A DNA stretch of 32,000 nucleotides from Nitrosococcus oceani ATCC 19707 (lineage in GTDB: Bacteria; Pseudomonadota; Gammaproteobacteria; Nitrosococcales; Nitrosococcaceae), in contig NC_007484.1 of the NCBI RefSeq assembly GCF_000012805.1, positions 720,001 through 752,000 on the forward strand, given 5' to 3'. Made by a program: the position numbers and the translations under genes. Under the pieces are notes generated by a model. That model saw only the letters and a list, made by a program, of their open reading frames with translations, had not been told where the DNA came from and made no database searches. Numbering within the stretch: position 1 is the stretch's first letter; every line of letters starts with the position of its first letter. This document shows, piece by piece, positions 1-16,290 of this stretch.

Positions 1-28
1 TGGATTCGGCGTCAGTCTGAAGACCAGC

Positions 29-424
29 ATGGGGACGCGGGTGAGCACGATGACAAGTGAACAGGACGATACGAACGACCAGCTGGAACGATCCCTGATC
101 GATGTTGCAGTCGAGAGCTGGAGATTTGCCCGACTGTTCTCCCGTCTTGTCAACAAACTGGATGCTGGCGAATCCACTCGTTACGTCAACCAGCTGCGCT
201 ACTTCCAGAAAAAGCTTGAAGAGAGCCTGGATGCCAGTGGCCTGAAACTGGTGAATGTTGAAGGTCAGCCATATGACCCTGGAATGGCTGCATCGGCGCT
301 TAATATTGGGGATTTCGGCCCTGATGATGAGTTGCTGGTTGATCAAATGGTGGAGCCCATCATCATGGGGCCAGAAGGCTTGCGCAAGCAGGGCACGGTA
401 ATGCTTAGGAAGGTGCATGCATGA
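29..424 (+). CDS. GrpE-like nucleotide-exchange factor (short, divergent)
   Basis: ORF track 29..424. The C-terminal half 'GLKLVNVEGQPYDPGMAASAL...VEPIIMGPEGLRKQGTVMLRK' follows the GrpE beta-domain pattern (G..[FY]DP...A ... lR.a.V.V). The stop overlaps the Hsp70 start (ATGA at 421-424). Start choice is uncertain (ATG 29 vs ATG 50). Assignment is by motif memory only. Confidence 0.55.
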   Translation: MGTRVSTMTSEQDDTNDQLERSLIDVAVESWRFARLFSRLVNKLDAGESTRYVNQLRYFQKKLEESLDASGLKLVNVEGQPYDPGMAASALNIGDFGPDDELLVDQMVEPIIMGPEGLRKQGTVMLRKVHA

Positions 425-2913
425 AATACGTCGGGATTGATCTTGGAACAACGAACAGTGCAATTTGCTCCTATGACGGAGAGTCGGTGCGCCTTTACAA
501 AAGTCCCGATCAAAATGACGTCACGCCATCAGCCATTTTTATTGATAGACGGGGCAACAAATACTTAGGCAAGCGAGCCTATGATAGTGCGGCCAAGAAT
601 CCTGATAATGCCGCTACGAAATTTAAGCGCATGATGGGGACCAGTACCCCAGTCAAGCTTGCCGCCGTTGATATCACCATGACGCCAGAGGAGTGTTCGT
701 CGGAGATCCTCAAGCTCTGCTTTGGGTATTTACCAGAGGAAATTAGAAACGGTGGAGAAACCGGAACCGTAATCACCGTTCCTGCCGCTTTTAATCAGAT
801 GCAAAAGGACGCCACGTTGGCTGCTGCTGAAATGGCTGGCCTGGGTAGCGTCGCGTTAATGCAAGAGCCAGTTGCGGCTGTCATGTGTGTTATGAAACAG
901 CGCAAAGGCGACGGCGTTTTTCTGGTGTTCGATCTCGGTGGTGGGACACTGGATATTGCGATTGCTGAAAGTATCAGTGGACGGGTGAGCCTGCTGGCTC
1001 ATGGTGGTGTCGCGATGTGTGGTGGCACCGACTTCGATCGCGCCATTCTTGATAACGTGGTCAAGCCATGGTTGATGTCCACCTTTGATCTTCCTGACGA
1101 TTTCAGCGCGAATTCGAAATACAAATCGCTTCTGAGAATGTGTCTTTGGGCCTCGGAAAAGGCAAAGATTGAATTGTCGGCAAAAGAGGACGCTGTCATC
1201 AGCCTCACAGAGTCTGATTTAGGTGTTAATGATGAATCTGGTGATGAAATCTATGTCGATATCCCCTTTACCAGAGAGCTGCTCGATAGCTTGATCGCCG
1301 ACAAGGTCGATGAATCTATCCAATCGGCTCGAGATACACTCGAGAAAGCGGGTCTGAGTCCTCATGATGTCGAGCGCGTCGTGTTCATCGGCGGACCAAC
1401 CCAATACAAACCGCTGCGTGATCGAGTCGCGTTTGAGCTCGGCATAGCACCATCATCCGATATGAATCCCATGACGGCCGTCGCAGAGGGCGCAGCCGTT
1501 TTTGCAGAATCGATCGACTGGAGTTCACAAAGCCGTGGCCGAAAGAATGCTCGGGGAGCACTCAGCACCGGCGGCTCGTTGGACCTCTCTTTCAATTACA
1601 TATCAAGAACGCCGGATTCGAAGGCGAAAATTGTAGCGAAACTTGGAGGGGATGCAGCGGCAGGCGTTGAGTTTCAGATCGATAGCCTGGATACCGGTTG
1701 GTCCTCGGGGCGAATGGCTCTTCAAGACGGGGCTGGCGTCGAACTCTCCCTGGCGAAGCCCGGGGAAAACACATTCAAAGTGTTTGTATTCGACTCCAAG
1801 GGTGGGCCTGTCGCATTAGGCGATGACAAAATTGTTATATCGCGAACAGCAGCCAGTATTGATGCCATTCCTGCGTCGCACTCGATCGGTGTCGAGGCGC
1901 GGGACAAGCTTGGTGGGCGTCTCGTCCTCGATCATCTTGTTCGCGAAGGTGATCAATTGCCAAAGAAAGGCAAGAAAATCTTCAAAACGGAGGAGTCACT
2001 CCGGGCAGGCAGTACCGGCTCGATCAAGTTCAAACTGTGGGAGGGCGAGATTTCCGACCCGGTAAACGACAATCGATTCATTGGTATGTTCGAGATCAAG
2101 GGATCTGATTTTGATGACGGTGTGATCGCCGCTGGTGCCGAGCTGGTTTGTGAGTATGAAGTGCTGGATTCCGGGAACATCGTGATGGAGGTTTCAGTGC
2201 CTTCGATCGGTGGTTCCTTTCATAGTGGGCGCAATTTCTACTCTCGTCAGGACGGTCAGATTGACTACACAAAGGCGTCCAAGCTCGTTGAGGAACAGTC
2301 GGAAAATACACTTCAACGTCTTGAGGAAATGGCTTCCAAGATTGACGATTCGAAGTTGGATCAAGCGCGAGAAAAGCTTGAGCGAGCTGAGTCTATCAGT
2401 AGTAGCGAATCCGATCCCGAAACGGCGAAGCAGGCAATGGACGATGTCCAGGAAGCCAAACGGCTATTGGCTCTTACTCGCAAGGAGCATTTGAAGGACA
2501 TTCGTCAGCTTGAGCTGGATAAGGCAATTGAGTTTTTCGATAAGGCAGTTCGAGAGCATGCTCGCCCTACTGAAGCCAATGCTTTCGACAATCTCGCCAA
2601 AACTGCCCAGCGTTCGATTGACAACAACAACGGCGACTTCGAATCGCATCTGGACGAACTGCGTGGAAAGAACTTTATGATCCTGTGGCGTCAGGACTGG
2701 TTTGTCATCGATCGCTTTAAATGGCTTGCTCAGGACACTTACCTGTTCCCCGATGCAAGAGAGCATGCGGAGCTAGTCGCAACTGGCGCCGAGGCACTCA
2801 AGGCGAACGATATCGACAAGTTGCGAGCGGTAGTCGCACATCTCGACTCGGTACGCATTGGTTCAGCGGGCGAAGATGAAATGATGGTTGGCGCAAATAT
2901 AGTTCGGAGTTAA
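421..2913 (+). CDS. Non-canonical Hsp70/DnaK-family ATPase (830 aa) with an inserted domain and a long helical tail
   Basis: Hsp70 nucleotide-binding-domain motifs are present: 'MKYVGIDLGTTNSA', 'ITVPAAFNQMQKDAT', 'VFDLGGGTLDIAI', 'VVFIGGPTQYKPLRDRV'. Further on, 'IPASHSIGVEARD...FKLWEGEISDPVNDNRFIGMFEI...ELVCEYEVLDSGNIVMEV' resembles the Hsp70 substrate-binding beta domain. There is extra sequence between the two domains and a helical C-terminus of about 230 aa. Length is 830 aa versus about 640 aa for housekeeping DnaK. Confidence 0.9.
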   Translation: MKYVGIDLGTTNSAICSYDGESVRLYKSPDQNDVTPSAIFIDRRGNKYLGKRAYDSAAKNPDNAATKFKRMMGTSTPVKLAAVDITMTPEECSSEILKLCFGYLPEEIRNGGETGTVITVPAAFNQMQKDATLAAAEMAGLGSVALMQEPVAAVMCVMKQRKGDGVFLVFDLGGGTLDIAIAESISGRVSLLAHGGVAMCGGTDFDRAILDNVVKPWLMSTFDLPDDFSANSKYKSLLRMCLWASEKAKIELSAKEDAVISLTESDLGVNDESGDEIYVDIPFTRELLDSLIADKVDESIQSARDTLEKAGLSPHDVERVVFIGGPTQYKPLRDRVAFELGIAPSSDMNPMTAVAEGAAVFAESIDWSSQSRGRKNARGALSTGGSLDLSFNYISRTPDSKAKIVAKLGGDAAAGVEFQIDSLDTGWSSGRMALQDGAGVELSLAKPGENTFKVFVFDSKGGPVALGDDKIVISRTAASIDAIPASHSIGVEARDKLGGRLVLDHLVREGDQLPKKGKKIFKTEESLRAGSTGSIKFKLWEGEISDPVNDNRFIGMFEIKGSDFDDGVIAAGAELVCEYEVLDSGNIVMEVSVPSIGGSFHSGRNFYSRQDGQIDYTKASKLVEEQSENTLQRLEEMASKIDDSKLDQAREKLERAESISSSESDPETAKQAMDDVQEAKRLLALTRKEHLKDIRQLELDKAIEFFDKAVREHARPTEANAFDNLAKTAQRSIDNNNGDFESHLDELRGKNFMILWRQDWFVIDRFKWLAQDTYLFPDAREHAELVATGAEALKANDIDKLRAVVAHLDSVRIGSAGEDEMMVGANIVRS

Positions 2914-2918
2914 CAAAT

Positions 2919-4361
2919 ATGCCCCTTGATGCGTGGCTCCCTGTTGGGTACAAATTGCCGGATGGCGCTAAGGTCCGCGTCGCTGTCTCTGAGGGGGTAA
3001 ATTGGCAAATTTGCGAGACCCACGGCGGTGGGCGAGCGCTCGTTGTTCAGCACGAACTCGCCAGCCGATGGATAGATGCCGGGCTGATCACAGAGGGGCC
3101 GATTAGGTTCTTTGATTTCGGCAACCAGCAATACGGGGCAATCGCTTGCGGTGCAGACCAGGTGTTATGCCCGATTGTAGAGGGAAACTCGCCGGACACG
3201 AAGGCTGAGGCTTTGTCGTTCGCGTTGGCGCTGAAGGCGACCCGCGACATAGATTCAGACTCACCGTTACAGGACGCTCTATACGTCGAAAAGATCAGCC
3301 GCCTTCTACCTACTTACAGCATTACAGCAAGAACCGACGATGATGTAGTACTTGGTTACTGGCTCACTGGTGGAGCGACTGTGTCTGCGAAATCGTTTCG
3401 CCGACTTCGTCAGACCATGAGCTGGCTAAGTGCAAGCCACCTCCAGGAGGTTGTTCAAGCTGGTGGGTTCGAAGTCGCTGAAGTTATACCGGCTGACCGG
3501 TCTCGAAGCTTGCCTTCGCGGCCAGATAACAAGCAAGCAGAGCGTACCGATCGAAAAGAAGAGCCGCGTGATCAGCAACACGCGTCGAAAGCCTTTGAAT
3601 TGGCTGGGCGACCTGACCTCGCCGCCTTCTTCAATGAGCATATCGTTGACATCATCCAAAACCGTGATCGTTATAAGGCTCTTGGTATTGAGTTCCCGTC
3701 GGCCATAGTTTTGCACGGACCTCCCGGATGTGGAAAGACGTTTGCGGTAGAGCGACTGATCGACTTCCTCGGTTGGCCAAGCTTTCAGATTGACGCTTCC
3801 AGCGTTGCTAGCCCCTACATTCATGAAACCAGCAAGAAGGTAGCCGAGGTTTTTGATAAGGCGATGGAGAATGCACCGTCTGTGTTGGTTATCGACGAGA
3901 TGGAGGCATTTCTGGCAGATCGCGAGACCGGTTCCGGCCATCATCGTGTCGAGGAAGTGGCTGAATTCCTGCGCCGGATTCCAGAAGCTGCAAAGAACGA
4001 CGTGCTTATTGTCGCGATGACAAACCGTGTCGATATGATTGATCCGGCCATCTTGAGGCGGGGCCGCTTTGATCATGTGGTCAATGTTGACTTTGCCAGC
4101 GAAGTAGAAGTGCTCTCATTGCTGGAGAAGTTGCTGTCAACCTTACCCAAAGAGGATGACGTTGACCCGACGCCATTTGCCCAGGAGCTCGCTGGGCGAC
4201 CGTTATCAGATGTGGCTTTTGTTGTCCGCGAGGGAGCTAGGCTTGCGGCACGGGCTGGCAAGGACAGATTGGATCAGGACAGCCTGCTCACAGCAATGCA
4301 TGCGGCACCAGCCAGAGAGCGCGAAGGCGCTAAGCGGCATCCGATTGGCTTCATCCGGTAA
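2919..4361 (+). CDS. AAA+ ATPase (classical AAA clade, single ATPase module) with an uncharacterised N-terminal domain of about 230 aa
   Basis: Walker A 'GPPGCGKT', Walker B 'VLVIDEME', and 'AMTNRVDMIDPAILRRGRFD' (second region of homology/arginine fingers). It starts 5 nt after the Hsp70 stop. Confidence 0.9.
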   Translation: MPLDAWLPVGYKLPDGAKVRVAVSEGVNWQICETHGGGRALVVQHELASRWIDAGLITEGPIRFFDFGNQQYGAIACGADQVLCPIVEGNSPDTKAEALSFALALKATRDIDSDSPLQDALYVEKISRLLPTYSITARTDDDVVLGYWLTGGATVSAKSFRRLRQTMSWLSASHLQEVVQAGGFEVAEVIPADRSRSLPSRPDNKQAERTDRKEEPRDQQHASKAFELAGRPDLAAFFNEHIVDIIQNRDRYKALGIEFPSAIVLHGPPGCGKTFAVERLIDFLGWPSFQIDASSVASPYIHETSKKVAEVFDKAMENAPSVLVIDEMEAFLADRETGSGHHRVEEVAEFLRRIPEAAKNDVLIVAMTNRVDMIDPAILRRGRFDHVVNVDFASEVEVLSLLEKLLSTLPKEDDVDPTPFAQELAGRPLSDVAFVVREGARLAARAGKDRLDQDSLLTAMHAAPAREREGAKRHPIGFIR

Positions 4362-4368
4362 GGCTAAC

Positions 4369-5826
4369 GTGAACGATGAAGAAGAAAAAAAACAGGGCGA
4401 GGGCAAAGGTTTTGCGGGTCTGTCATCAATGGTGTCAGATGTTGATGACGTCGTAAGCAGTAAACCGAAACAGCCCCAGAAGCCCCACTCTGAACCGCCT
4501 CCAAAACAGACTGCCGGCGGTAGTCAGCAGCCGAAACAAACGTCAACCAAACCAACCTCGCAGACTTATCAGGCACCTGCACAACCATCGGGCGGCTCAT
4601 CAGCGGGCAAGTGGTTTGTGGGAATTGCTGTGGTTATTGGCCTCATCTGGCTTGCTAACCAATCAGACAACAACAGGCCATCGAAGTCGGGTTATTCCCC
4701 AGGATCTTCTTCAACTTCCACAGCGCCGACCAGCCAACCAGTAATCGCGCAGCCCCAGGCGCCGAGTCGTCCATCTGAAAGCAAGCCTTCCGTTGGTCGA
4801 AACAATGTCCTTTCAACTGCGCAGATCCGCTACTGTTTGGCCGAGAAAATTCGGCTCGATGCAGCAGAGGTGGTTCTCAATAATTACAGCGATTCGGACG
4901 TGGATCGCTTTAATGGGTATGTGAACGACTATAACAGCCGTTGTGGTGAGTTCCGCTACCGCCAGGGCGCCCTTGAGAGCGCTCGAAGAGATGTCGATCC
5001 ATACCGTAGTCAATTACAGGCCGAGGGGCGGAACAGATTTGTTCGTAGTCCTGCTACAACAGCGAACGCTCCGGCCTCTACTCAAGCATCTAAGCCCTCT
5101 CGCCCTACGCCAGACGCAACGGTGCTGGCTATTCAGCGTCGATTGAATGAGCTCGGGTATAACGCGGGTACGCCTGATGGTTTGTTCGGGAACAAAACAC
5201 GGTCTGCAATTCAGGCTTTTCAACGGGATAACGCAGTGGCCACCGATGGCGTAGCTAGTCGTTCCCTTCTTTCTCAATTGAATGCTAGTACGCCGAGGGC
5301 TAGCGGACAATTCGATGGGCTCAATTCACTTAGTGGTAAAGCTGAGTTAAAGGGCGGATCAGCGCCAAACGTTGTTCGGCGTCCCGAACCAAGTAGGGAC
5401 AGAGAAAATTTCGCGACATGTATATCCGGTGAGTACCCATCACTCTGCAAGCATTCGTTGCTGACTCGAGAGGAGGCCGTGCAAGTAGAAGCTGCAGAAA
5501 AGCGCGCGAACTTCGGTACTTGTATATCAGGTGAGTATCCATCGCTATGTAAACATTCATGGCTCACCAGAGAAGAAGCAGCTCAAGTGAACATTGCGGA
5601 AAAGAGAGCTAACTATCGGACATGTATCACCGGAGAGTATCCGTCTCTCTGCAAGCACTCCTTGTTGACTGGCGAAGAAGCAATACAAGTCCAAGTCGCA
5701 GAGCGGCGGGCTAATTTCAGAACATGCATATCTGGAGATTACCCGTCACTGTGCAAGCACTCTCTGCTCACACCAGATGAGGCCTTAAAGGTAGCGGAAG
5801 CGGAACGGCGAGCGAAAGGAAGATAG
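4369..5826 (+). CDS. Single-pass membrane protein with a peptidoglycan-binding (PG_binding_1-like) domain and four C-terminal Cys-pair repeats
   Basis: The track ORF 4156..5826 overlaps the AAA gene by 206 nt. I place the start at GTG 4369 (AAGG 5 nt upstream, 7 nt after the AAA stop); ATG 4429 is the alternative. It has a Pro/Gln/Ser-rich N-terminal tail and one TM helix, 'WFVGIAVVIGLIWLA'. 'LAIQRRLNELGYNAGTPDGLFGNKTRSAIQAFQRDN' matches the PG_binding_1 signature. Four 34-aa repeats follow. Confidence 0.8.
   Translation: MNDEEEKKQGEGKGFAGLSSMVSDVDDVVSSKPKQPQKPHSEPPPKQTAGGSQQPKQTSTKPTSQTYQAPAQPSGGSSAGKWFVGIAVVIGLIWLANQSDNNRPSKSGYSPGSSSTSTAPTSQPVIAQPQAPSRPSESKPSVGRNNVLSTAQIRYCLAEKIRLDAAEVVLNNYSDSDVDRFNGYVNDYNSRCGEFRYRQGALESARRDVDPYRSQLQAEGRNRFVRSPATTANAPASTQASKPSRPTPDATVLAIQRRLNELGYNAGTPDGLFGNKTRSAIQAFQRDNAVATDGVASRSLLSQLNASTPRASGQFDGLNSLSGKAELKGGSAPNVVRRPEPSRDRENFATCISGEYPSLCKHSLLTREEAVQVEAAEKRANFGTCISGEYPSLCKHSWLTREEAAQVNIAEKRANYRTCITGEYPSLCKHSLLTGEEAIQVQVAERRANFRTCISGDYPSLCKHSLLTPDEALKVAEAERRAKGR
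5407..5814 (+). repeat. 4 x 102-bp in-frame tandem coding repeat (34-aa unit N[FY]xTCI[ST]G[ED]YPSLCKHSxLTxxEAxxVxxAE[KR]RA)
   Basis: Read directly from the translation, residues 418-553 of the track ORF. The four consecutive units are NFATCISGEYPSLCKHSLLTREEAVQVEAAEKRA, NFGTCISGEYPSLCKHSWLTREEAAQVNIAEKRA, NYRTCITGEYPSLCKHSLLTGEEAIQVQVAERRA and NFRTCISGDYPSLCKHSLLTPDEALKVAEAERRA. The DNA copies have diverged at synonymous positions. Confidence 0.9.
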
Positions 5827-5901
5827 AGATATGCATCGAGAATTTCTTGCTGAACCGAGTTGGCGGGTTGGTCATCTGATCAATATTGGAGGGCAGATCA
5901 G

Positions 5902-7911
5902 ATGACCAAAGCAATTTGTTTTAGCTGTGGTGCTGAAAAATTTGGTGCGCTAACCCAATGTGGGGCATGCAAATCAACACCCAGAGTAGAGGGTGATCTA
6001 GCTTTGTCCCTTGTTCTTTCTGATCATCTTTCGTCGGAAACGCAGTTGGAAGTATTGGCCCATGAAATCCGGAGTCATCTAAAACTCACTGTACCTGAAG
6101 CTCTTCTTCGTCAAGCACACGAAGCTCTTAAGGACCCTCAACTACTTGCAATGCTGGGAACTGGTCCTGGGAATGCAACTGATGGATCACAGGCGCGACC
6201 TACACCTCGAACTGCGCGGCCTGGATCACCACCGACGACCCGTTCATCGTCGAACCGACGCCAACGGAGTCTGCATCAATCAGAGCTTCAACAAAATCCC
6301 TTTGCGCTGCTCGGCGTTACCACTAGGGATGATCGGCGCCGGATTGTTGAGCTGGCAGAGGAAAAGTCACTGGAGCTGGATCATGACGCGTGCCAAAAGG
6401 CGCGCTCTGACCTTACCAGCCCGAGGATGAGGTTGAGTGCAGAAATGTCCTGGCTGCCCGGCGTCTCGCCAGGGAAGGCCGCACAGTTTGTTTCCGCGCT
6501 GCATTCTGACCCGATGTCGGTTCGTGAGGAGTCGGGCCTGCCGACTCTTGCTCACTTGAACCTCCTGGCGTCGGCATTTGAGGCTATAGACGGCAATGAT
6601 TCAGCAGATGATGTCGCTGAATTTATCCAGGAGATGGCGTATCTGGTGGACGACCTCTCTGCGGAACAGGTGCTGCGCGATATCAACGAAGACCGTTCGG
6701 TATCTGGTTTTCCCGAAGTCAAGGGTATCGAACAGGTGGAGGCTGAGCTGTCCGAGCGAAAGCGCTATTACCGTAACGCAATCAAAGACGCTTTAAACAG
6801 GCTTCCGCCTGCTTCTCTTGTCGATGCCATGACTACTGCCGTCGACCAAATTACCGGTGGCGGAGAAGATCACGCACCGGAACTCATCGACGACCTGGTG
6901 GATAGCTATGCCGTTGAGACACAAGGATTCTTGCAGAAAGAAGCGGAGAGTGTAGAGAAGCTGATCAATGCAGCCAGGGACTCAGCTACGTCAGGTGAAA
7001 AGGTAGTAAAGCCGATTGTAGACAAGCTGGTGGTAGTCGCCAGGAATTGGGACAAGGTTGCACAACCAATTCAGCTTAGCGCAAAGGCAAGAGGAATCGA
7101 TCACGATCCGAGCCATGAAATTGCCTATTCAATACGAAGCCTCGCGATTGATCTATTTAACGAGCATGACATGCTTGATCAATCGCAGAGACTTACTGAG
7201 CTGATTCAAGAGCTTTTTGCAGAGCTACCCGAAGTTGTAGAAAGGGTAGAGCAAGATTCAGAAGCGCTTGCCGATATTTTTCAGAACCGAAAAATGAATG
7301 AGGCGCAGAAAGATGAATGGGCCCGCGACATCACCTATCGAGCTGAAGTCGGGGTGATGTTCAAAGATGTATTAAGTATCTCGCCGGATGGGCTTAGTTG
7401 GAAAAACCAACGGTTTCCGTTAGATGCCGTTACCCGCGTGCGATGGGGAGCTGTGCGTCACTCTGTTAACGGCATACCTACCGGCACAACCTATACGCTC
7501 GCATTTGGCGACAATCGTTCAGAGGCAGTTGTCGAGCTAAAGAAGGAATCAACATACTCCACGTTTCTAGAGAAGCTGTGGAAGGCTGTCGTTATTCGAT
7601 TACTGACAGAATTGTTTGAGACATTGCAAGGCGGAAACGAGGTCCGTTTCGGTGAAGCAACGCTCAGCGACGATGGAGTGACGTTGGTCAAACACAAATT
7701 TCTTGGGACCAATGAAAAAGTTCGTTGCTCGTGGGGGCAAGTTCATGTGTGGAGTGCTGACGGCTCTTTTTATATCGGTTCCAAGGACGACAAAAAGACC
7801 TACGTCGGCCTGTCTTACATCCATGCTGCCAATACGCACGTCCTGGAACAGGCGATCAGAATGGCTTTTAAAAAGCCAGGAATGCGGCGGTTAAGCGACA
7901 TGCTTCAGTGA
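5902..7911 (+). CDS. Zinc-ribbon protein with a degenerate J-domain-like segment and two C-terminal beta-rich modules
   Basis: The track ORF begins at a non-ATG codon (5860). ATG 5902 has GGAGGG 8 nt upstream. 'CFSCG...CGAC' forms a zinc ribbon. 'NPFALLGVTTRDDRRRIVELAEE...ARSDLTSPRMRLSAEMSWL' resembles J-domain helices I-II and III-IV but has no HPD tripeptide. The C-terminus holds two similar modules ('ISPDGLSWKNQRFPLDAVTRVRWG', 'LSDDGVTLVKHKFLGTNEKVRCSWGQVHVW'). The CDS call is solid; the J-domain assignment is tentative. Confidence 0.7.
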   Translation: MTKAICFSCGAEKFGALTQCGACKSTPRVEGDLALSLVLSDHLSSETQLEVLAHEIRSHLKLTVPEALLRQAHEALKDPQLLAMLGTGPGNATDGSQARPTPRTARPGSPPTTRSSSNRRQRSLHQSELQQNPFALLGVTTRDDRRRIVELAEEKSLELDHDACQKARSDLTSPRMRLSAEMSWLPGVSPGKAAQFVSALHSDPMSVREESGLPTLAHLNLLASAFEAIDGNDSADDVAEFIQEMAYLVDDLSAEQVLRDINEDRSVSGFPEVKGIEQVEAELSERKRYYRNAIKDALNRLPPASLVDAMTTAVDQITGGGEDHAPELIDDLVDSYAVETQGFLQKEAESVEKLINAARDSATSGEKVVKPIVDKLVVVARNWDKVAQPIQLSAKARGIDHDPSHEIAYSIRSLAIDLFNEHDMLDQSQRLTELIQELFAELPEVVERVEQDSEALADIFQNRKMNEAQKDEWARDITYRAEVGVMFKDVLSISPDGLSWKNQRFPLDAVTRVRWGAVRHSVNGIPTGTTYTLAFGDNRSEAVVELKKESTYSTFLEKLWKAVVIRLLTELFETLQGGNEVRFGEATLSDDGVTLVKHKFLGTNEKVRCSWGQVHVWSADGSFYIGSKDDKKTYVGLSYIHAANTHVLEQAIRMAFKKPGMRRLSDMLQ

Positions 7912-7943
7912 AATCTTGTATTGCGGCATATTGAGGATCGACT

Positions 7944-8193
7944 ATGGGATTTATATCCAAATTATTTGGTGGTAACAAAGAGGACAAAGCACTTCGCGAA
8001 GCGTTTGAGCAGATACGACGCATCATTGAAGATGAGCAATTCCAGCTCGATATGATTCATCCTGCAATGAAGGCGATGATCGAGTCTCGACCTGCCTATG
8101 ATCAGGATCCGAACGGTACTGGACCCTTTGGGTTTTCCGAGACCAACCCGATTCCCGTAAATGGTTCAATTGGCCAACTTGCCTATTTATCTA
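7944..8193 (+). pseudogene. 5' part of a small hypothetical gene interrupted by an IS5-family insertion
   Basis: GAGGA lies upstream of ATG 7944. The ORF runs into the IS end at 8194 and terminates 3 codons inside it (track end 8204). Confidence 0.8.
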
Positions 8194-9665
8194 GTCGGCG
8201 CTGAAAAAGCCGGTTCTCAGGCTGCACGAGGTGGAGCAAGTAACAGGTATTGTATAAAAGCCGGTTGGATTTTGAGCCAAAAAATCCTCAGGTACCTGAG
8301 GATCAGCCGGAGATTCTGGCCGGCACCGCACAGGATGGCGTTGATTGCATCGCCCTCGACCCCTTTGAGATAATTGCGATGCAACAGGCCGTCGTTTTTC
8401 ATGTGACCAATGATCGGCTCGATAGCGTTACGTCGTTTTAACTCACGTCGGATAGTGCGCGTGACGCCACGCTTTTGTCGAGCTTTGAATACGTCGACGT
8501 CGTCAACATCGTGACCGCGATAACCTAGATCCACATAACAACGCTCGGGCCGTTGTCCGGTTAATCGCTCAACCTGGTGCAAGGCTTTCTTCAGCGTATG
8601 ACCATCGTAGGGACTGCCTGGCAGTGACTGTGCGCCCACCACCAGGTTGGAACGGTTGGTGGTGGCGATACTAACCTTGACACCAAACTCGTAGCGCTTG
8701 TGCGCCGTGCCTTTGGCAATGCACTCAACCTCCGGTGCGTGCAGCGCGTAGAGTTTATTTTTATCGTGACGTTGTTGATCGAGCAATCGTTTGGTTAATG
8801 CCATCGACTCTGCAAAGGCCGCTTGCACCGAGGCCGATTGCTTCGGCAATTTGCGCTCAATGTCCCGAACCACCCGCCCCAGCACGGTCTTCAGCTTCGC
8901 GGCGGTGCGGCGCATGCGGCGTGTCTGTCGCGCATAACCGTAGCGGTTGTTCTTGAACAAAAGTCGCGGGCCCACGCGCACGTAGCTTTGGCGCAACGGT
9001 ACGCCGTGTGCTTTCGCCAAGCGTACCAGGCGCTCACGGGCCCGGTTGTACAGCTTCGAGTCGGTGGGGAACGCAATCGCTTTCTCCTGCACCGTCGTGT
9101 CAACCGTAACGCACTTTAAATCTCGTGCTTTCACCGCCTTCGACGCAATCGCTGCATCGATCGTCGCACTCAGTAACGATTCCATACCCTCGTCACCTAA
9201 ACGCTGACGCCAACGTGTCAACGAACTCGGGTTCAATGGCAGCTCGTGTTGAAAATACCTTTCACCACAAAAGTATTGCCAGTACGGATTCTCTGCCCAG
9301 CGTTGCACCACCTGTTCATCGGACAAGCCGTAGGTGTGTTTCAAGTAGTGCAGACCCGCAATCAATCGGGTCGCGATGGCAGGACGACCGTTCTCACAAA
9401 ATGCCTCACCCCACTGTGCATCAAAGAACTCCCAATCAATTAACGCTGCGAGTTTGGCCAGCTCATGGCGCGTATCAATGAGGTTTTCCAGGCGGTGACG
9501 AAACAGATCATCGGTGGGTAAATCGGGTGGCGTTTGAGGCTTCATTTTAGCTTCCGAAATTGCCAGCTTCGGATACGTATCTTACCATTCGCTGGCAATT
9601 TCTTCTCTACAAAATTACCTTATTCCTAAATACTTTCAGGGCCTTATGACTTCTTCAGCGCCGAC
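8194..9665 (-). mobile_element. IS5-family insertion sequence (1472 bp)
   Basis: Terminal inverted repeats are GTCGGCGCTGAAAAAG (8194-) and the reverse complement of CTTCTTCAGCGCCGAC (-9665), with 15 of 16 positions matching. The element is flanked by the direct repeat TATCTA at 8188-8193 and 9666-9671. It contains one transposase ORF. Confidence 0.85.
8217..9545 (-). CDS. IS5-family DDE transposase (442 aa)
   Basis: The N-terminus 'DDLFRHRLENLIDTRHELAKLAALIDWEFFD...GRPAIATRLIAGLHYLKHTYGLSDEQVV' is typical of the InsH/DUF772-type N-terminal domain of IS5-family transposases. It is a full-length ORF between the inverted repeats. Confidence 0.9.
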   Translation of the reverse strand: MKPQTPPDLPTDDLFRHRLENLIDTRHELAKLAALIDWEFFDAQWGEAFCENGRPAIATRLIAGLHYLKHTYGLSDEQVVQRWAENPYWQYFCGERYFQHELPLNPSSLTRWRQRLGDEGMESLLSATIDAAIASKAVKARDLKCVTVDTTVQEKAIAFPTDSKLYNRARERLVRLAKAHGVPLRQSYVRVGPRLLFKNNRYGYARQTRRMRRTAAKLKTVLGRVVRDIERKLPKQSASVQAAFAESMALTKRLLDQQRHDKNKLYALHAPEVECIAKGTAHKRYEFGVKVSIATTNRSNLVVGAQSLPGSPYDGHTLKKALHQVERLTGQRPERCYVDLGYRGHDVDDVDVFKARQKRGVTRTIRRELKRRNAIEPIIGHMKNDGLLHRNYLKGVEGDAINAILCGAGQNLRLILRYLRIFWLKIQPAFIQYLLLAPPRAA

Positions 9666-9671
9666 TATCTA

Positions 9672-10066
9672 AGCTGGAAACAGAAAGGGGAGAGAGAATC
9701 CTATTTCATAGAATTGGTGCAGTGGATACGATTGACGTGTTCGAGGCTGTCACTTTCTCAGGAAGCGAGTGGTTCATCTTGTTTTTGGACCTATACCACC
9801 CCCGGCGTTCACGTCTAACGCCAGATGGATTTCGCTTTACACAGGAGGTCGGTCAGTTCTCTGGTTTCCATAAATTTTGCACTGACTTCCCGTATGACTT
9901 CGTGGAGATGAAGCAGTCAGAGAGCGAATCTGGATTGAGTATGGCGTATATCGCCATCAGCAAGTTTATGGAACCCATTCAGAACAGAGCATACCAACGA
10001 CCACTTGCGCACAAGGCGAAGTTAGATCTAGTGAAGAGTCGCCTGACCAGTGTTCAGGCACAATAA
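9672..10066 (+). pseudogene. 3' part of the IS-interrupted gene
   Basis: Removing 8194-9671 joins ...AYLS to KLETERGERILFHRIGAVDTIDVFEAV... in frame. The track ORF 9722..10066 is the tail of this frame. Confidence 0.8.
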
Positions 10067-10128: not shown

Positions 10129-11379
10129 ATGACGAAGACGGCCACTCACAAATGGATCTTCCCTGCACGTTTTCGTGCAGGGGCCTATGGTTGGAAATCC
10201 TCCAAATTAGCGTGCCAGCGACTTCGCGAAGCCGTTTCCGAAATCAAGAAGGTGGCGAAGAAAGAACCTGATCTGGCTGCAGAAGGTGCCGTCCGCCTGA
10301 TCGAAAAGCTCTGGCCTGCGCTGGAGCATGTGGACAGCTCCAGCGGCGCCCTGGGTTCTGCGGTGAACAAAGTACTCGACCAACTGCTTCCAGTCATCAT
10401 CAATGCGCCGGCGGATCCCAATACACGCCAAAAATGGCTTGAACGCTTATGGCAGGCGATGGAGGATGATGGCGTCGACTACCTGGGGCCGGTGGGTGAC
10501 CGCTGGGGAGAGGTGTGCGGTTCGGTGGAAAGCGCCAATCAGTGGGCCGAAGAATTGATGCCGACATTGAGGTCGTGTTGGGCCGACCCGAATCCCGGAA
10601 ACTATTTTCATGGCGCAACGGCCTGCCTGTCCTGCCTGCTGGTGGCCGAACGCTATCAGGATCTGCTCGACCTCCTGGCGCTCGACCGTAAACCTTTCTG
10701 GCACTACCGTCGCTATGGTGTCGAGGCGTTATTGTCGATGGGCAAGAAGTCGGAAGCGCTGCAATACGCTGAGGGATCACGAGGCTTGAACCAACCGGAT
10801 TCGGCGATTGATCAGGCCTGCGAAGAGATCCTGATTTCCTCGGGTCTCCATGATGAGGCCTATCGGCGCTATGGGCTGAGGGCGGCCCAGGGGAATTGGT
10901 ATCTCGCCCAATTTCGTGCTGTGGCAAAGCGCTACCCCATGAAGGATGCGTCAGCGATTCTGGCCGACCTCATCGCCACGACCCCCGGAGATGAAGGAAA
11001 ATGGTTTGCGACGGCAAAGGAGCTGGAGCTGTATGTACTCGCATTGGGCCTTGCGAACCGGAGTCCCTGTGATCCAAAAACACTGACCAGGGCGGCCAGG
11101 GATAACCTCGATTCGGCACCGGAATTTGCCCTGGGTTCAGCCCTGACCGCGTTGCGCTGGCTGAGTGAGGGTTGGGGTTACGAGGTGACCAACGTCGATG
11201 TGATGGAGGCCTATGACCGGGCAATGGACGCTGCCACCCGCTTGAATAAGGCTGACGACGTTACCGGGCAGATCCGGCAACTCGTTGAGGCGAACGACAA
11301 TGGGGCGAGACAGTTTGTGCGCCAGGCATTGCAGGGAAGAATGCGCGTCGGTAGTGACGACAACGGCCCAGAGACATAA
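10129..11379 (+). CDS. Hypothetical alpha-helical protein (416 aa)
   Basis: Long ORF with coding-like composition. A decayed paralogous 3' fragment is present at 21749-22070. I recognise no catalytic motif. Confidence 0.75.
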   Translation: MTKTATHKWIFPARFRAGAYGWKSSKLACQRLREAVSEIKKVAKKEPDLAAEGAVRLIEKLWPALEHVDSSSGALGSAVNKVLDQLLPVIINAPADPNTRQKWLERLWQAMEDDGVDYLGPVGDRWGEVCGSVESANQWAEELMPTLRSCWADPNPGNYFHGATACLSCLLVAERYQDLLDLLALDRKPFWHYRRYGVEALLSMGKKSEALQYAEGSRGLNQPDSAIDQACEEILISSGLHDEAYRRYGLRAAQGNWYLAQFRAVAKRYPMKDASAILADLIATTPGDEGKWFATAKELELYVLALGLANRSPCDPKTLTRAARDNLDSAPEFALGSALTALRWLSEGWGYEVTNVDVMEAYDRAMDAATRLNKADDVTGQIRQLVEANDNGARQFVRQALQGRMRVGSDDNGPET

Positions 11380-12211: not shown

Positions 12212-13594
12212 TTACTTGGCCTGATTAAGCGGTAGGCGAATGCGCACACTGAGCCCGCCATTGGGTTCATTGCTTGCGGATATTACGCCACCGTGCAGGT
12301 GTATCGCGCGTTCCGCGATCGCTAATCCCAGGCCGTACCCCCCGCTCTCCCTGTCGCGGGCATCACCCACGCGCACGAAGGGTTCAAATAATTTCGTCAA
12401 CATATCGTCCGGCACGCCGGGACCATGGTCTCGCACTTGAACAAGCAGCCAGCCGGGGTGCTCAGGGTCGTGCTGCAGGGTGATGTCTACCGAGGTATTC
12501 TCATCCGTATATCTGATTGCGTTGCGCACTACATTTTCCAGGGCGCTTCTCAGCAGGGGTTCGTTGGCCTCGATGGTTGCCGACAGGCTATTATTGATGG
12601 TGCGCACCTGGCGATTCGCGGCACGCGCCTCAAAATCCGCGTTCTCAGCGACTTCCGCCAGGAGGGCGGCTACATCAACCGGCTCTGAATGGGTGAGCTG
12701 GGTATTGGATTCCAGGCGCGTGAGTGATAAGAGTTGTCCGATCAATTCATTCAGACGTTCGGCTTCGTGCTCGATGCGATCCAGTTCGGCATTGGTCTGA
12801 TGTTGTTGGCGTTGGCGTACGAGCCCCAATGCCACCTGCAGCCGAGCCAACGGTGAGCGAAGTTCATGTGAAACGTCGCTGAGCAACTGCTTTTGTGAGC
12901 CGATGAGAATTTGCAGGCGTTCGGCCATATGGTCGAAATCACGGGCGAGATCGGCGACTTCATCCCTGCGCCTACCCATGGTTGATGCGACCCGCAAACT
13001 GAGATTACCGGCAGCGAATTGATGGGTCGCATTGCTGAGTCGCCGTATAGGCCTGGTGAGATATCCAGCCAGGAGAAAGCAGACCAGCCCGCTGACAATC
13101 GCGGCCACGATGACGGGGGGCGCGATGACCCGCGGCCTGCTCAGCACTCTATTCAGGGTTACCGCCTGAAAGTTTGGCACCAGCAGGTATTCGCCGGCGC
13201 CGGGTACCTGAATCAGGTCACGGCGCCCAGGCGATCGCCTTTCATCCGTCGGACGCCGTGGCTTCCTCCTGCGATCTAAGCGTTCCGCGAGGTGGGATGA
13301 TATGGGTCGATCAAGTAAATCCTTGCCTGCTCTATCGATCAATAAAAAGGGGATTGCCTCGGTTCGGTCCAGTTTTTTTAGCCACGACTTCAGTCCTTCA
13401 ATTCCTTCGATTTTCGCAACTAACCGAGCCTCGTTAATATAGGTTAAATGCCGGTCGCGTGGACTTTCGATCTCATCCTGCGCGTGTGTGCGCTCCAGAA
13501 AGAGCGACGCTGCCAGCAGACCGGCGCCGGCGAACAGAATGAGGGAAATCCAGAAGGAGAGAAAAATTTTCCAGAAAAGGCGGTTCATCATCAA
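12212..13594 (-). CDS. cpxA: Sensor histidine kinase, CpxA-like
   Basis: Two TM segments flank a periplasmic domain. A HAMP-like segment is followed by the H-box 'SHELRSPLARL'. 'VVRNAIRYT', 'DHGPGV' and 'RVGDARDRESGGYGLGLAIAERAI' closely resemble E. coli CpxA. The start overlaps the regulator stop by 4 nt. Confidence 0.85.
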   Translation of the reverse strand: MMMNRLFWKIFLSFWISLILFAGAGLLAASLFLERTHAQDEIESPRDRHLTYINEARLVAKIEGIEGLKSWLKKLDRTEAIPFLLIDRAGKDLLDRPISSHLAERLDRRRKPRRPTDERRSPGRRDLIQVPGAGEYLLVPNFQAVTLNRVLSRPRVIAPPVIVAAIVSGLVCFLLAGYLTRPIRRLSNATHQFAAGNLSLRVASTMGRRRDEVADLARDFDHMAERLQILIGSQKQLLSDVSHELRSPLARLQVALGLVRQRQQHQTNAELDRIEHEAERLNELIGQLLSLTRLESNTQLTHSEPVDVAALLAEVAENADFEARAANRQVRTINNSLSATIEANEPLLRSALENVVRNAIRYTDENTSVDITLQHDPEHPGWLLVQVRDHGPGVPDDMLTKLFEPFVRVGDARDRESGGYGLGLAIAERAIHLHGGVISASNEPNGGLSVRIRLPLNQAK

Positions 13595-14286
13595 CGTGTG
13601 TACTGGTAGCCAACACCACGAACGGTTTTGATTCTTTCCTCGCCGTTGGTAAGTGGTCCAAGCTTTTTGCGCAGACTGCTGAGGTGCATGTCGATACTGC
13701 GGTCATAGCGCGTCAGCTCCCTGCCCAGGGCGCGTTCTGATAACTCCGCCTTGGACACGACATGGCCGGCTTCACGCAGTAGCACTTCAAGCACACTGTA
13801 CTCTGTGCTCGTCATGGTGACAGGCCGCCCATTCAGGGCAACCGTGCGCGACCCGGTTTGAACCTCGAGATCATCGAGTTTCAATATTTCCGGTGGCGCT
13901 GATTTTTCGCCGTGTTGTGTTTGTGATTGTAAACGCCGGAGTATGGCGCGGATGCGGGCGACCAGTACGCGCGGGTTACAAGGTTTTGGTAGATAGTCGT
14001 CAGCGCCCAGCTCAAGGCCGATAATGCTATCCACATCCTCGCCGCGGGCCGTCAGCATCAGCACCGGCACTAAAGAGTCTTTACGCAATTCGCGTAATAC
14101 ATCAAAGCCATTGAGCTGCGGCATCATCACATCGAGTACGGCCAGGTCGTAGCCGCCTGTCCGGGCCTGATTCAATGCGGACTCGCCGCCATGGGCCATA
14201 CCCACCTGGAAGCCTTCGACTTCCAGGTATTGCTTTAGCATCCCGCACAACTCAATGTCATCATCCGCCAGCAGTATTCGGTTCAT
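13591..14286 (-). CDS. cpxR: OmpR-family response regulator, CpxR-like
   Basis: 'ILLADDDIEL...DLAVLDVMMPQLNGFDVL...LMLTARGEDVDSIIGLELGADDYLPKPCNPRVLVARIRAILRR' is close to E. coli CpxR. A winged-helix C-terminus is present. Confidence 0.9.
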   Translation of the reverse strand: MNRILLADDDIELCGMLKQYLEVEGFQVGMAHGGESALNQARTGGYDLAVLDVMMPQLNGFDVLRELRKDSLVPVLMLTARGEDVDSIIGLELGADDYLPKPCNPRVLVARIRAILRRLQSQTQHGEKSAPPEILKLDDLEVQTGSRTVALNGRPVTMTSTEYSVLEVLLREAGHVVSKAELSERALGRELTRYDRSIDMHLSSLRKKLGPLTNGEERIKTVRGVGYQYTR

Positions 14287-14377
14287 GGCATATTTCGGAT
14301 CTTAATCAAAATACCTGTACTGATGTTGGCACAATAGGAGATATAAGTAATGACTCGTTTTTCAACAATTACCCATC

Positions 14378-14392
14378 TTTACACAATCTTAC
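14378..14392. promoter_or_regulatory. Candidate CpxR box (TTTAC-N5-CTTAC, i.e. GTAAG-N5-GTAAA on the other strand)
   Basis: One mismatch to the established CpxR consensus GTAAA-N5-GTAAA. It sits centrally in the 199-bp divergent cpxR/cpxP intergenic region. Confidence 0.45.
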
Positions 14393-14485
14393 TCAGCTGC
14401 GACACACATTGACGCCGAAATTCACTAATCTGGCAGCATGCTTTGATTCACAGAGCATATCACTAACATAGATAGGAGATTAATT

Positions 14486-14965
14486 ATGAAAAAGTCATCA
14501 AAAGCACTGTTGGCCAGTATGTTGATCGTGAGTTCATTGGGACTTGTTGCGACAGTGTCTGCCAAGCAGCACAGCGATAGGCCGGACTGTAAGCGCGATG
14601 GTCATCACATGGGGGCGGGTTATAAGCATGGCGACAAGGGATTTAACGTGGACCGCATGGCCAGAAAGCTGGACCTCGGAGATGACCAACGTACGCAGAT
14701 TGAGGCCATTATGGAAGCATCAAAACAGCAGATGAGCGATCAACGCGACAAGATGCAAGCGAATCGCGAACAGCTGAGATCGCTGACGACGCAAAGTCCG
14801 CTTGATGAAGCGGCGGTGCGTACGGTCGCGGACGCTCAGGGCGATCTGGAGGCCGATATGATTGTGCTGCGAGCGCAGCAACGCGCGAAGATCAATGCTA
14901 TTCTCACCGATGAGCAGCGCGCTGAGCTGGAAGACATGGGTGGCAAGAAACGCGGGCATCGCTGA
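14486..14965 (+). CDS. cpxP: Periplasmic CpxP/Spy-family protein
   Basis: Signal peptide 'MKKSSKALLASMLIVSSLGLVATVSA'. LTxxQ-type motifs are present ('LGDDQRTQIEAI', 'ILTDEQRAELE'). It is divergent from cpxRA, as in E. coli. Confidence 0.8.
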   Translation: MKKSSKALLASMLIVSSLGLVATVSAKQHSDRPDCKRDGHHMGAGYKHGDKGFNVDRMARKLDLGDDQRTQIEAIMEASKQQMSDQRDKMQANREQLRSLTTQSPLDEAAVRTVADAQGDLEADMIVLRAQQRAKINAILTDEQRAELEDMGGKKRGHR

Positions 14966-15717: not shown

Positions 15718-16290
15718 GTGCTTTATGCCGTGGAGTTTCTGACCAACCCCAGGTTGCGCGATGAAGTTGGCAATATTCGCCTGGTGCCGCCGGAAGAGCG
15801 TATCTATGGCAATGGCGCCTCCTGGAGCATGGCGGCCTTCACCCACCTACCGGTGGATGGTCGAGGCGGTTGCTTTAACCGGGATTTCGGCATCTATTAC
15901 TGCGCCGCCGATAAGGTAGTGGCCATCGCCGAATCATCCTTCCATCGGGCACGATTCCTACGAGAATCCAGAATCGACAGGACCACCCAGGAAATGCGCG
16001 TTATCCGCGCACAACTGGGACCTGTCATCTTGCATGACGTGCGGCACCTGGACGGAGACGCCATCTACGATCCCAATGATTACCGAGAGGGACAGCAGCT
16101 CGGCTATGGGTTACGTGATGCCAAAAGTTACGGCGTTCGCTATCGCAGCGTGAGAGCGAAAGGGGAGTGTTATGGGGTGATGCGTCCCAAGGCGCTTTCG
16201 GATGCCATTCACTGGCATTATCTGCGCTATCACTATGACCAGGGGATGATCGTTGAGGTTGAATCCCTGGATGGCAGTGGCAGAGGGTAA
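15718..16290 (+). CDS. RES-domain protein, apparently 5'-truncated and lacking an antitoxin partner
   Basis: 'LTNPRLRDEVGNIRLVPPEERIYGNGASWSMAAFTHL...GGCFNRDFGIYYCAADKVVAIAES...YGVRYRSVRAKGECYGVMRP' matches the long RES family I remember. That family normally has about 40 more N-terminal residues and 'SRF/GRW' where this protein has 'GCF'. The ORF opens with GTG right at the junction with the LysR relic. Confidence 0.65.
   Translation: MLYAVEFLTNPRLRDEVGNIRLVPPEERIYGNGASWSMAAFTHLPVDGRGGCFNRDFGIYYCAADKVVAIAESSFHRARFLRESRIDRTTQEMRVIRAQLGPVILHDVRHLDGDAIYDPNDYREGQQLGYGLRDAKSYGVRYRSVRAKGECYGVMRPKALSDAIHWHYLRYHYDQGMIVEVESLDGSGRG

Follow-up and report, generated by a model that had tools for sequence, protein, structure and literature searches.

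A mobile Hsp70/AAA+ gene cassette of Nitrosococcus oceani as a candidate membrane-associated anti-phage defence system

The DNA analysed here, called the window, is a stretch of 32,000 nucleotides (nt) from Nitrosococcus oceani ATCC 19707 (NCBI RefSeq assembly GCF_000012805.1, contig NC_007484.1, positions 720,001 to 752,000). The locus under study occupies positions 29-7911 of the window. It contains five co-directional genes, namely g1, an Hsp70 gene, g3, g4 and g5, and a sixth gene, g6, follows in two pieces. The g1 product is a small alpha+beta protein and a candidate GrpE-like nucleotide-exchange factor. It is followed by a long Hsp70, an AAA ATPase (g3), a membrane protein (g4) and a zinc-ribbon protein with a degenerate J-like segment (g5). 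The Hsp70 of 830 amino acids (aa) is 100% identical to the N. oceani protein named 'Heat shock protein Hsp70'. The present analysis shows that these genes recur together as a cassette in distantly related bacteria, and we examine the cassette as a candidate for defence against phages or other mobile elements.

A scan of GTDB with one genome per species (185,579 species representatives) returned 267 relatives of the Hsp70. The locus counts given below refer to the best 80 of these 267, at species level. The 80 loci are spread over Alpha-, Beta-, Gamma- and Deltaproteobacteria, Planctomycetota, Acidobacteriota, Nitrospirota and Armatimonadota, with Hsp70 proteins that are 65-98% identical. The relatives span at least six phyla and belong mostly to Proteobacteria. 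By tblastn, g1 was found in all 80 loci, always directly upstream of the Hsp70 gene and overlapping it, g3 in 77, g4 in 69 and g5 in 62. In practically every locus whose contig permits, the cassette is colinear. Missing genes are mostly explained by contig ends or IS-disrupted copies (IS, insertion sequence), and a minority of loci have the order g1-Hsp70-AAA-g5-g4. The median identity to the window proteins was 77% for Hsp70 and g1, 71% for the AAA ATPase, 59% for g5 and 46% for g4, in which about half of the length was alignable. A preliminary description of the window had proposed a dedicated chaperone/unfoldase module, and the neighbourhoods in these unrelated genomes show a co-inherited, colinear unit.

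The g1 and Hsp70 genes are joined by an ATGA overlap at 421-424. The following gaps are 5 nt between Hsp70 and g3, 7 nt between g3 and g4 (read from GTG 4369), 75 nt between g4 and g5, and 32 nt between g5 and g6. The open reading frames (ORFs) and junctions of the preliminary description were all reproduced, to the last coordinate, by ORF listing and direct reading. The start of g4 at GTG 4369 is supported by orthologues that align from residues 1-5 of this reading, and that of g5 at ATG 5902 by the near invariance of Met15 in the longer TTG ORF. The g1 orthologues are mostly 124 aa long and begin at the position equal to ATG 50 of the window. ATG 50 is probably the true start of g1, which would give a protein of 124 aa. 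In a promoter and terminator scan, the intergenic gaps held no more sites than shuffled sequence, and no convincing internal promoter or terminator was seen in the operon.

The five genes that had been assigned to the operon stand, but the operon is longer on both sides. Since positions 1-60 of the window are the 3' end of an HTH_17 gene, the operon begins outside the window. The full gene, with a PF12728 match, lies at 7414-7635 of L081, which is N. oceani DNA including the upstream flank, and its stop codon at 58-60 of the window overlaps the g1 start. An HTH_17 gene is found directly upstream of the cassette in 20 of the 74 eligible species loci. It is also adjacent upstream in L090, L091, L093 and L094, and in L092 it is fused to g1. 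On the downstream side, what had been taken for a sixth small gene is the N-terminal piece of g6, which is split by an IS element with the terminal inverted repeats CTAGTCGGCGCTGAA / TTCAGCGCCGACTA. Intact g6 orthologues have 214 aa, and one orthologue cluster joins window 7944-8204 with 9722-10066. The break points were set by blastn against L060. The IS element interrupts g6 only, and the other five cassette genes are intact in the window. g6 was present in 28 of the 80 loci.

The nucleotide-binding domain (NBD) is the conserved part of the Hsp70. PF00012 matched with E=4e-54 over aa 4-363 only, ending at profile position 373 of 599, and solved DnaK structures aligned with aa 2-362 (E=3e-61). 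The phosphate-1, phosphate-2 and adenosine motifs and the catalytic Lys and Glu are all present, in the segments GIDLGTTNS (aa 5-13), FKR (aa 68-70), QEP (aa 148-150), DLGGGTLD (aa 171-178) and GGPTQ (aa 324-328). GIDLGTTNS, K69, E149, DLGGGTLD and GGPTQ are invariant across 38 Hsp70 orthologues. Because these ATPase motifs are invariant, the Hsp70 is very probably an active ATPase.

The remainder of the Hsp70 departs from the canonical architecture of NBD, linker, beta part of the substrate-binding domain (SBD-beta) and lid, which takes about 600-640 aa. About 115 extra residues follow the NBD, and the protein reaches 830 aa in total. The C-terminal 466 aa had no match in Pfam or PDB sequences. 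An hhalign comparison with canonical SBD-beta gave the expected register over 67-85 columns, in which IPASHSIGVE pairs with TPLSLGIE, FKLWEGE with IHVLQGE, and NRFIGMF with NKSLGQF. The match had P=0.073 with the single E. coli SBD and P=0.022 with a four-sequence SBD profile, and 2 of 100 column shuffles reached the score. The references were the E. coli DnaK, which closely matched the SBD of the metagenomic protein P0391 (see below), together with database HscA and DnaK sequences. These results are suggestive of an SBD-beta in the segment at aa ~478-600. None of the NCBIfam whole-protein cut-offs was reached: the scores were 200 bits against 648-822 for DnaK, 178-184 against 620-709 for HscA, and 27 against 331 for PRK11678. 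The NBD motifs, the length of 830 aa, the extra sequence between NBD and SBD and the helical tail were thus recovered as they had been described, and the SBD-beta-like segment scored above chance, although marginally.

The g3 product matched PF00004 over the full profile (E=1e-30), and its nearest solved relatives are NVL, VAT, p97 and Cdc48 (E about 1e-51). The Walker A and Walker B motifs and the arginines of the second region of homology (SRH), on which its description as a classical AAA ATPase had been based, were confirmed, and PYIHE stands at the pore-loop position. By these motifs and relatives, g3 is a predicted single-ring classical AAA ATPase of the Cdc48 type with its catalytic motifs intact. 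Its best PADLOC match was IetA (E=2e-25), and TRIP13 models also matched the generic AAA module.

The resemblance of g1 to GrpE is consistent across the family and lies below threshold. PF01025 scored 13.1 bits with the window protein against a gathering score of 25.8 (E=0.075). Within the g1 family, GrpE was the commonest Pfam match. It was found in 30 of 55 members, in the C-terminal region, always sub-threshold and with a best E of 0.002. The same C-terminal region was aligned by hhalign, which paired aa 56-106 of g1 with residues 123-175 of E. coli GrpE, and 3 of 100 shuffles reached the score. A search of the PDB sequences with the g1 family profile gave no GrpE match. The AlphaFold2 (AF2) model of g1 has two long helices and a beta-domain at a pLDDT of only 53. 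Foldseek placed the GrpE of T. thermophilus (3a6m) fourth for this poor model (E=1.6), a ranking that is uninterpretable because the model is of low confidence. These results weakly support the label 'GrpE-like' that g1 had been given: the signal recurs, but it stays under the Pfam cut-off and the model is poor.

The g5 protein gave a confident AF2 model (pLDDT 86), in which a helical body is followed by two PH-like modules. Foldseek searches with this model against PDB and BFVD (viral) returned no match at E<=0.001; centaurin, a tandem-PH protein, appeared with a probability of 0.75, below significance. The g5 family comprises 2,821 clusters at 50% identity, and its members are mostly about 545 aa long. 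The N-terminal zinc ribbon is regarded as accessory because most family members begin directly at the NPFxxLGV motif. In the g5 orthologues of L016, L029, L034, L052, L064 and L071, the J-like and helical core is kept and the PH-like modules are swapped for a region ending in about two transmembrane (TM) helices.

A J-like segment lacking HPD had been noticed in g5. The alignment of a J-domain profile with g5 by hhalign covered 50 columns (P=0.0015), and none of 100 shuffles reached its score. It contains helix I/II, a 13-residue deletion after the HPD position and the 'A..L.DP..R' end of helix III. HPD is absent, and the aligned position is variable (LDHD, LDPD, LDAE, IDYD, LDSS). That much of the description stands, but PF00226 was absent from the listed Pfam families of 49 g5-family members (scan at E<=1), and no J-domain occurred among the top 50 Foldseek PDB matches of the g5 model. 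These results weakly support a degenerate J-like hairpin in g5, as distinct from a J-domain by family membership. The metagenomic protein P0391 (1078 aa) is a canonical DnaK-type Hsp70, N-terminally truncated and with SBD and lid, joined to a complete g5 core (PF00012, E=2e-197). It could be a real g5-Hsp70 fusion or an artefact of assembly or gene calling. Apart from this one DnaK fusion, the N-terminal extensions of long g5 relatives were uninformative. No match for g1, g5 or g6 was found in PHROGs.

The g4 product is a bitopic (single-pass) inner-membrane protein, as predicted from its one TM helix. Conservation among 63 orthologues is confined to the N-terminal ~225 aa, and the ectodomains are swapped between orthologues. 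The window protein does carry the peptidoglycan-binding domain for which g4 had been singled out, but this domain does not define the family, since PG_binding_1 occurs in 27 of the 63 orthologues. The remaining orthologues have EGF-like repeats, PG_binding_2, SLT, TonB_C, SH3, or nothing. Together with the gradient of identity from Hsp70 and g1 down to g4, this swapping forms a specificity-like pattern. The cytoplasmic N-terminal motif of g4 (KGFAGLSSxVSDVD) is also found on PGB2 and c25, which are paralogous membrane proteins of the long form of the cassette, and it is a better client candidate than the Pro/Gln-rich tail. In a subset of loci, further genes encode a signal-peptide protein (c6), the g4 paralogue PGB2, another protein with a signal peptide (c10) and an RDD membrane protein. 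Overall, the operon counts five to ten genes. Pfam searches with g6, c6, PGB2, c10, c29, c25, the g3 N-terminal domain and the C-terminal half of Hsp70 gave no match, and RDD was found for c9 only. The features of the locus are listed in Table 1.

Table 1. Genes and features of the cassette in the window of N. oceani ATCC 19707.
Feature	Protein position (aa)	Window position (nt)	Strand	Remarks
HTH_17 (AlpA/MerR-like) regulator gene, 3' end		1-60	+	73 aa in full, start upstream of the window
g1		29-424	+	131-aa ORF
Hsp70 gene		421-2913	+	830 aa
Hsp70 NBD	1-363	421-1509	+	PF00012, DnaK structures
Hsp70 beta-rich insert	~365-477	1513-1851	+	~115 aa
Hsp70 SBD-beta-like segment	~478-600	1852-2220	+	hhalign
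Hsp70 helical tail	~610-830	2248-2910	+	~220 aa
g3 AAA ATPase gene		2919-4361	+	480 aa
g3 N-terminal domain	1-183		+	no match in Pfam; fold not recognised
g3 AAA module	~241-466	3639-4316	+	
g3 Walker A	267-274	3717-3740	+	GPPGCGKT
g3 Walker B	322-329	3882-3905	+	VLVIDEME
g3 SRH arginines	380-385	4056-4073	+	RRGRFD
g4 membrane protein gene		4369-5826	+	GTG start, 485 aa
g4 cytoplasmic N-terminal motif		4405-4446	+	KGFAGLSSMVSDVD; conserved in orthologues
g4 Pro/Gln-rich linker			+	between N-terminal motif and TM helix
g4 TM helix		4612-4656	+	
g4 conserved periplasmic Cys module	~145-225		+	
g4 PG_binding_1	251-304	5119-5280	+	Pfam E=1e-15
g4 four 34-aa Cys repeats	347-482	5407-5814	+	
g5		5902-7911	+	ATG start, 669 aa
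g5 zinc ribbon	1-85	5902-6156	+	CxxC...CxxC at aa 6-23; accessory; then disordered linker
g5 degenerate J-like hairpin	~128-190	6283-6471	+	hhalign
g5 all-helical body	133-477	~6472-7332	+	AF2; nt given from the hairpin on
g5 two PH-like modules	479-576, 581-656	7336-7869	+	AF2; seven strands and a helix each
g6 N-terminal fragment		7944-8182	+	listed ORF reads on to 8204, into the IS element
IS element		~8183-9664	-	DDE_Tnp_1/DUF772 transposase 8217-9545; outside the system
g6 C-terminal fragment		9665-10066	+	blastn break points, orthologue cluster

Further genes lie downstream of g6 in the window. A 416-aa ORF without Pfam match (10129-11379) follows g6 here and in the closely related locus L001, and the cassette may have it as an accessory specific to this lineage. 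Next to a RES-domain toxin gene (15718-16290) comes a short fragment of an RNase_T-like exonuclease (16290-16622), and this pair is probably the remnant of a RES-Xre type toxin-antitoxin system. A 1,253-aa ORF without Pfam match (16962-20723) stands between the RES toxin and a tyrosine integrase gene (23770-24708), and SelO is encoded at 26284-27936.

The cassette was also found on plasmids. A Vibrio plasmid carries a divergent five-gene version. On plasmid pAM01 of Aminobacter sp. MSH1 (L099 9968-15406), only three of the genes occur: a g5-like gene (841 aa; hhalign E=2e-19), a g1-like gene (117 aa; hhalign E=1e-15) and a long Hsp70 (843 aa; 35% identity over the full 830 aa). The g5-like protein of pAM01 has about 500 extra C-terminal residues. 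As this distant version has the trio alone, g5, g1 and Hsp70 were taken to be the ancestral core, and from this comparison the AAA and membrane genes look like later additions to an older trio. In the Aeromonas caviae plasmid pKAM471_1 (L097 1-5645), a long-form cassette lies directly after Tn7-like transposition genes, and its Hsp70 gene appears frameshifted or split. The Tn7-like genes encode a Mu-type transposase, an ATP-binding protein, a TnsD-like protein and TnsE, and the plasmid is a mobilisable IncP plasmid. Among 5,426 complete E. coli genomes, the cassette was present in one, strain HeN100, which has the short form (NZ_CP044443.1, about 4115500-4122400). A megablast search of window 1-8200 against plasmids gave no match. 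A tblastn search of g5 against 50,697 phage records found none, and the cassette was seen on one IMG/VR contig only.

The neighbourhood of the cassette contains defence genes in several lineages. Directly upstream in N. oceani (L081 25-7304) lie an SNF2-like gene and BrxR (WYL), then a complete QatABCD set (KAP NTPase, QatB, QueC-like protein and TatD). In a Burkholderiaceae genome, BREX genes for PglY, PglZ, BrxD and a helicase stand immediately upstream of the cassette, and marine Pelagibaca contigs have PglZ/BrxL, UvrD-PDDEXK and NERD-TOTE genes near it. Another lineage has a McrB-like gene, a type I restriction-modification (R-M) system and BrxR near the cassette, and one further locus is an IS-riddled region with a DruA fragment. 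In E. coli HeN100, the cassette resides in a CP4-type island that also carries RADAR rdrB, a fragment of dptF, and genes for antirestriction and toxin-antitoxin functions. As a descriptive tally with no genome-wide background, about a quarter of 95 upstream-neighbour ORFs from 65 species matched defence families at E<=1e-10. These families were WYL (six times), Hhe/PDC-S37, Mokosh-like and ZorD-like (three times each), mad2 (twice), ZacC, SoFic, CapP, GajB-like, PDC-S21 and PDC-S68. Pfam identified five integrases and two dynamin-family proteins among the same neighbours. The island setting, from which a conflict role had been suggested for the N. oceani locus, recurs in many unrelated genomes in the form of defence or mobile islands.

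We compared the cassette with known systems. The set of DnaK, DnaJ and GrpE with ClpB is similar in composition: a Hsp70 with an intact ATPase follows a small GrpE-like gene and is joined by a J-like adaptor and an AAA+ unfoldase. In the analogy, targeting by Hsp70 would be followed by threading through the AAA ring. However, the cassette Hsp70 clearly shares the NBD only, and it has the insert of about 115 aa and the helical tail of 220 aa. g3 is of the single-ring Cdc48/VAT type, whereas ClpB has two rings and an M-domain. Unlike DnaJ, g5 has neither HPD nor a PF00226 match, and unlike the DnaK-ClpB set the cassette is mobile, sparse and membrane-linked.

Four defence or conflict systems were considered and rejected because their defining partners are absent. 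IetAS (Gao_Iet), an AAA ATPase with a serine protease, shares the ATPase module for which IetA was the best PADLOC match of g3. Membership was rejected on a score of 86 bits against the cut-off of 510 for NCBIfam IteA, a different N-terminal domain, and the absence of an IetS protease from every form of the cassette. In Zorya, ZorAB sits in the inner membrane, binds peptidoglycan through a periplasmic domain and is coupled to defence components in the cytoplasm. It shares this concept with g4 without homology, as g4 is single-pass, is not a MotAB-type stator and has the peptidoglycan-binding domain as an option; PADLOC Zor models did not match g4, and Zorya was rejected. The GTPase-centric GAP1-N2 systems resemble the cassette in that a predicted conflict system includes an Hsp70 of its own, along with a GrpE and a J-type partner. 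Their hallmarks are GAP1-N2 GTPases and FNIII-repeat proteins, and most of them are known from Actinobacteria and Firmicutes (Kaur et al. 2020, PMC7159879). Neither a GTPase nor an FNIII protein was found in the conserved clusters (about 100 loci) or in the Pfam-annotated neighbourhoods, and the taxa here are mostly Proteobacteria. CnuD/CnuCD of the CoCoNuT systems are Hsp70-like NBD/SBD proteins with added helical repeats in defence operons. CnuD of Type III CoCoNuT has McrB-like GTPases and homologues of McrC as partners, and a degenerate Walker-A-like motif has been described for it (PMC11090510). CoCoNuT membership was rejected, as the cassette has no McrBC partner and its Hsp70 ATPase motifs are invariant.

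The EACC1-protease modules are similar in that an Hsp70-family domain is proposed as the sensor of an antiviral module. Their DnaK-like part has no lid, shares about 50% identity with canonical DnaK and is joined in one protein to a protease-effector pair (PMC12642450). In contrast, the cassette Hsp70 is a separate protein, far more divergent and with a long tail, and no protease accompanies it. PADLOC-DB v2.0 had no match for g1, Hsp70 or g5 and matched the generic AAA module only. g1 and g5 were labelled 'hypothetical protein' in every source examined. A search of full-text literature, which did not extend to subscription-only titles, found no description of the cassette gene set. The earlier impression that no named system has these genes thus agrees with PADLOC and with the literature searched. 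Hsp70-family proteins have already been predicted in conflict systems, and the gene set of the cassette appears unprecedented.

From conservation, mobility and neighbourhood, we favour with about even confidence the reading that the cassette is a horizontally mobile, membrane-associated Hsp70/AAA+ remodelling machine and a likely candidate for defence against phages or mobile elements. Several points weigh against it. The conserved genes contain no recognisable effector domain (nuclease, protease, TIR or pore-former), and the conservation of Hsp70 and g1 is unusually high for defence genes. The enrichment of defence neighbours was counted descriptively. Some loci are without such neighbours: in L095/L096, the cassette forms a small insert with tctABC on one side and, a few kb upstream, the host's isc operon and its HscA on the other, and only ParD and Abi_2 are nearby. 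The memberships of g1 in GrpE and of g5 in the J-proteins fall below family thresholds, the g1 model is unreliable, and Foldseek showed no J-domain for g5. As the SBD-beta assignment is marginal, substrate binding by the Hsp70 is itself presumptive.

Some of these points fit a mobile module for envelope or protein quality control. Under heat, solvent or envelope stress, it would clear, refold or extract damaged proteins of the inner membrane or of its periplasmic face. Such a module would have no part in immunity and would be akin to transmissible stress-tolerance loci. We consider this unlikely. In its favour, the enzymatic parts (Hsp70, an exchange-factor-like protein and an AAA unfoldase) all belong to proteostasis, their partners are located in the membrane or periplasm, and a toxic effector domain is missing. 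Purifying selection on Hsp70 and g1 is strong and resembles that on housekeeping chaperones, and some loci are without defence neighbours. The neighbours that recur independently of taxon, however, are BREX, R-M, Qat, RADAR, TOTE and BrxR and not stress genes. Sparseness extends to a single species, as in E. coli, and the swapped g4 ectodomains look like specificity determinants and not like a general adaptor. The cassette also has no small heat-shock protein, protease or ClpB/ClpK-type partner. In N. oceani, an envelope-stress set of the Cpx kind, 4 kb downstream of the cassette, can be counted for quality control. It occupies 12212-14965 of the window. The minus strand encodes a HAMP/HisKA sensor kinase and an OmpR-type regulator, and the gene of an LTXXQ/CpxP-like periplasmic protein is divergent from these. 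These genes are not conserved beside the cassette in other genomes, and the Cpx-like two-component system was therefore excluded from the unit.

A further possibility, which we hold to be somewhat less likely again, is a conflict module that serves the mobile element itself through entry exclusion, addiction or anti-defence. It could, for example, remodel envelope proteins so as to keep out rival elements, or stabilise its carrier by way of a toxic membrane protein under chaperone control. The Tn7-like cargo on an IncP plasmid and the integrative islands with integrases, antirestriction and toxin-antitoxin genes would suit such a role. So would the upstream HTH_17/AlpA-type regulator, which is typical of islands, a membrane protein that could be toxic, and the near absence from phage sequences, with the single IMG/VR contig. 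Yet defence systems are the typical cargo of exactly such elements, so genomic context cannot separate the host-defence reading from the element-serving one. No partner antitoxin-like gene is evident. The occurrence of the cassette on many element types, and also on none that is recognisable, argues against a function tied to the life cycle of one element.

It is highly improbable, and was rejected on family cut-offs and distribution, that the locus is a specialised housekeeping Hsp70 paralogue of the hscBA or hscC-djlBC kind misread as exotic: the order g1-Hsp70 recalls grpE-dnaK and E. coli HscC also works with membrane-anchored J-proteins, but the NCBIfam scores are far under the DnaK, HscA and HscC cut-offs, cassette-bearing genomes keep their own isc-hscBA operon with a canonical HscA a few kb upstream, and the patchy spread, at up to 98% identity across phyla, bears out the earlier view that this is not a housekeeping locus.

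Within the favoured reading, the general claim of a dedicated conflict system at the membrane has much better support than each of the mechanistic steps. Gene order, the minimal trio of pAM01, the DnaK fusion and the weak homology signals point to g1 as an exchange factor and g5 as an adaptor. The g4 TM helix, the PH-like or TM ends of g5 and the periplasmic accessory proteins suggest that the machine assembles at the inner membrane. Only tentatively, we propose an unrecognised class of immune system in which a private Hsp70 cycle, with its own exchange factor and an HPD-less adaptor, works with a Cdc48-like unfoldase and a modular envelope-spanning receptor. Infection would be detected at the envelope or by titration of the chaperone, and stopped by ATP-driven extraction or unfolding at the inner membrane.

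In this proposal, g1 would act as the nucleotide-exchange factor of the cassette Hsp70. g5 would be the dedicated Hsp70 adaptor, docking through its degenerate J-like hairpin and held at the inner membrane by its PH-like modules, or by TM helices in other members. The exchangeable periplasmic domain of g4, which is peptidoglycan-binding in the window, would report on the envelope. The cytoplasmic N-terminal peptide of g4 may be a handle for the substrate site of Hsp70 or for the AAA N-terminal domain, and the candidate peptide is KGFAGLSSLVSDVD. In the uninfected cell, the Hsp70 cycle would keep one or more membrane partners silent. Infection would shift this balance, either through an envelope perturbation sensed by g4 or through phage proteins that titrate the chaperone. 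The AAA unfoldase could then act on a tagged membrane protein, or on phage proteins at the membrane, by extraction or remodelling. Either entry of the genome or assembly would be blocked as a result, or membrane damage would lead to abortive infection. Chaperones have been described as infection sensors in other settings, namely DnaJ with bNACHT25 (PMC12169576), SecB-like chaperones in toxin-antitoxin-chaperone (TAC) systems (bioRxiv 10.1101/2024.02.24.581848) and the DnaK-like domains fused to EACC1-protease modules (PMC12642450).

The cassette is directly testable because it is compact (about 8-12 kb), is carried by an E. coli strain as well as by an IncP plasmid of Aeromonas, and offers obvious ATPase point mutants. 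If it serves in defence, it would be the first system centred on a complete dedicated Hsp70 cycle and a Cdc48-type unfoldase with no classical effector, and protein remodelling at the membrane would join the known ways of stopping phages. Such immunity would rely on the remodelling of proteins in place of nucleases, NADases or pores, and it would be a bacterial counterpart, in an immune setting, of the eukaryotic Hsp70/p97 extraction machinery. Whatever its function, the cassette offers a natural Hsp70 that apparently uses an HPD-less adaptor and a minimal GrpE-like factor, which bears on how the Hsp70 cycle can be rewired.

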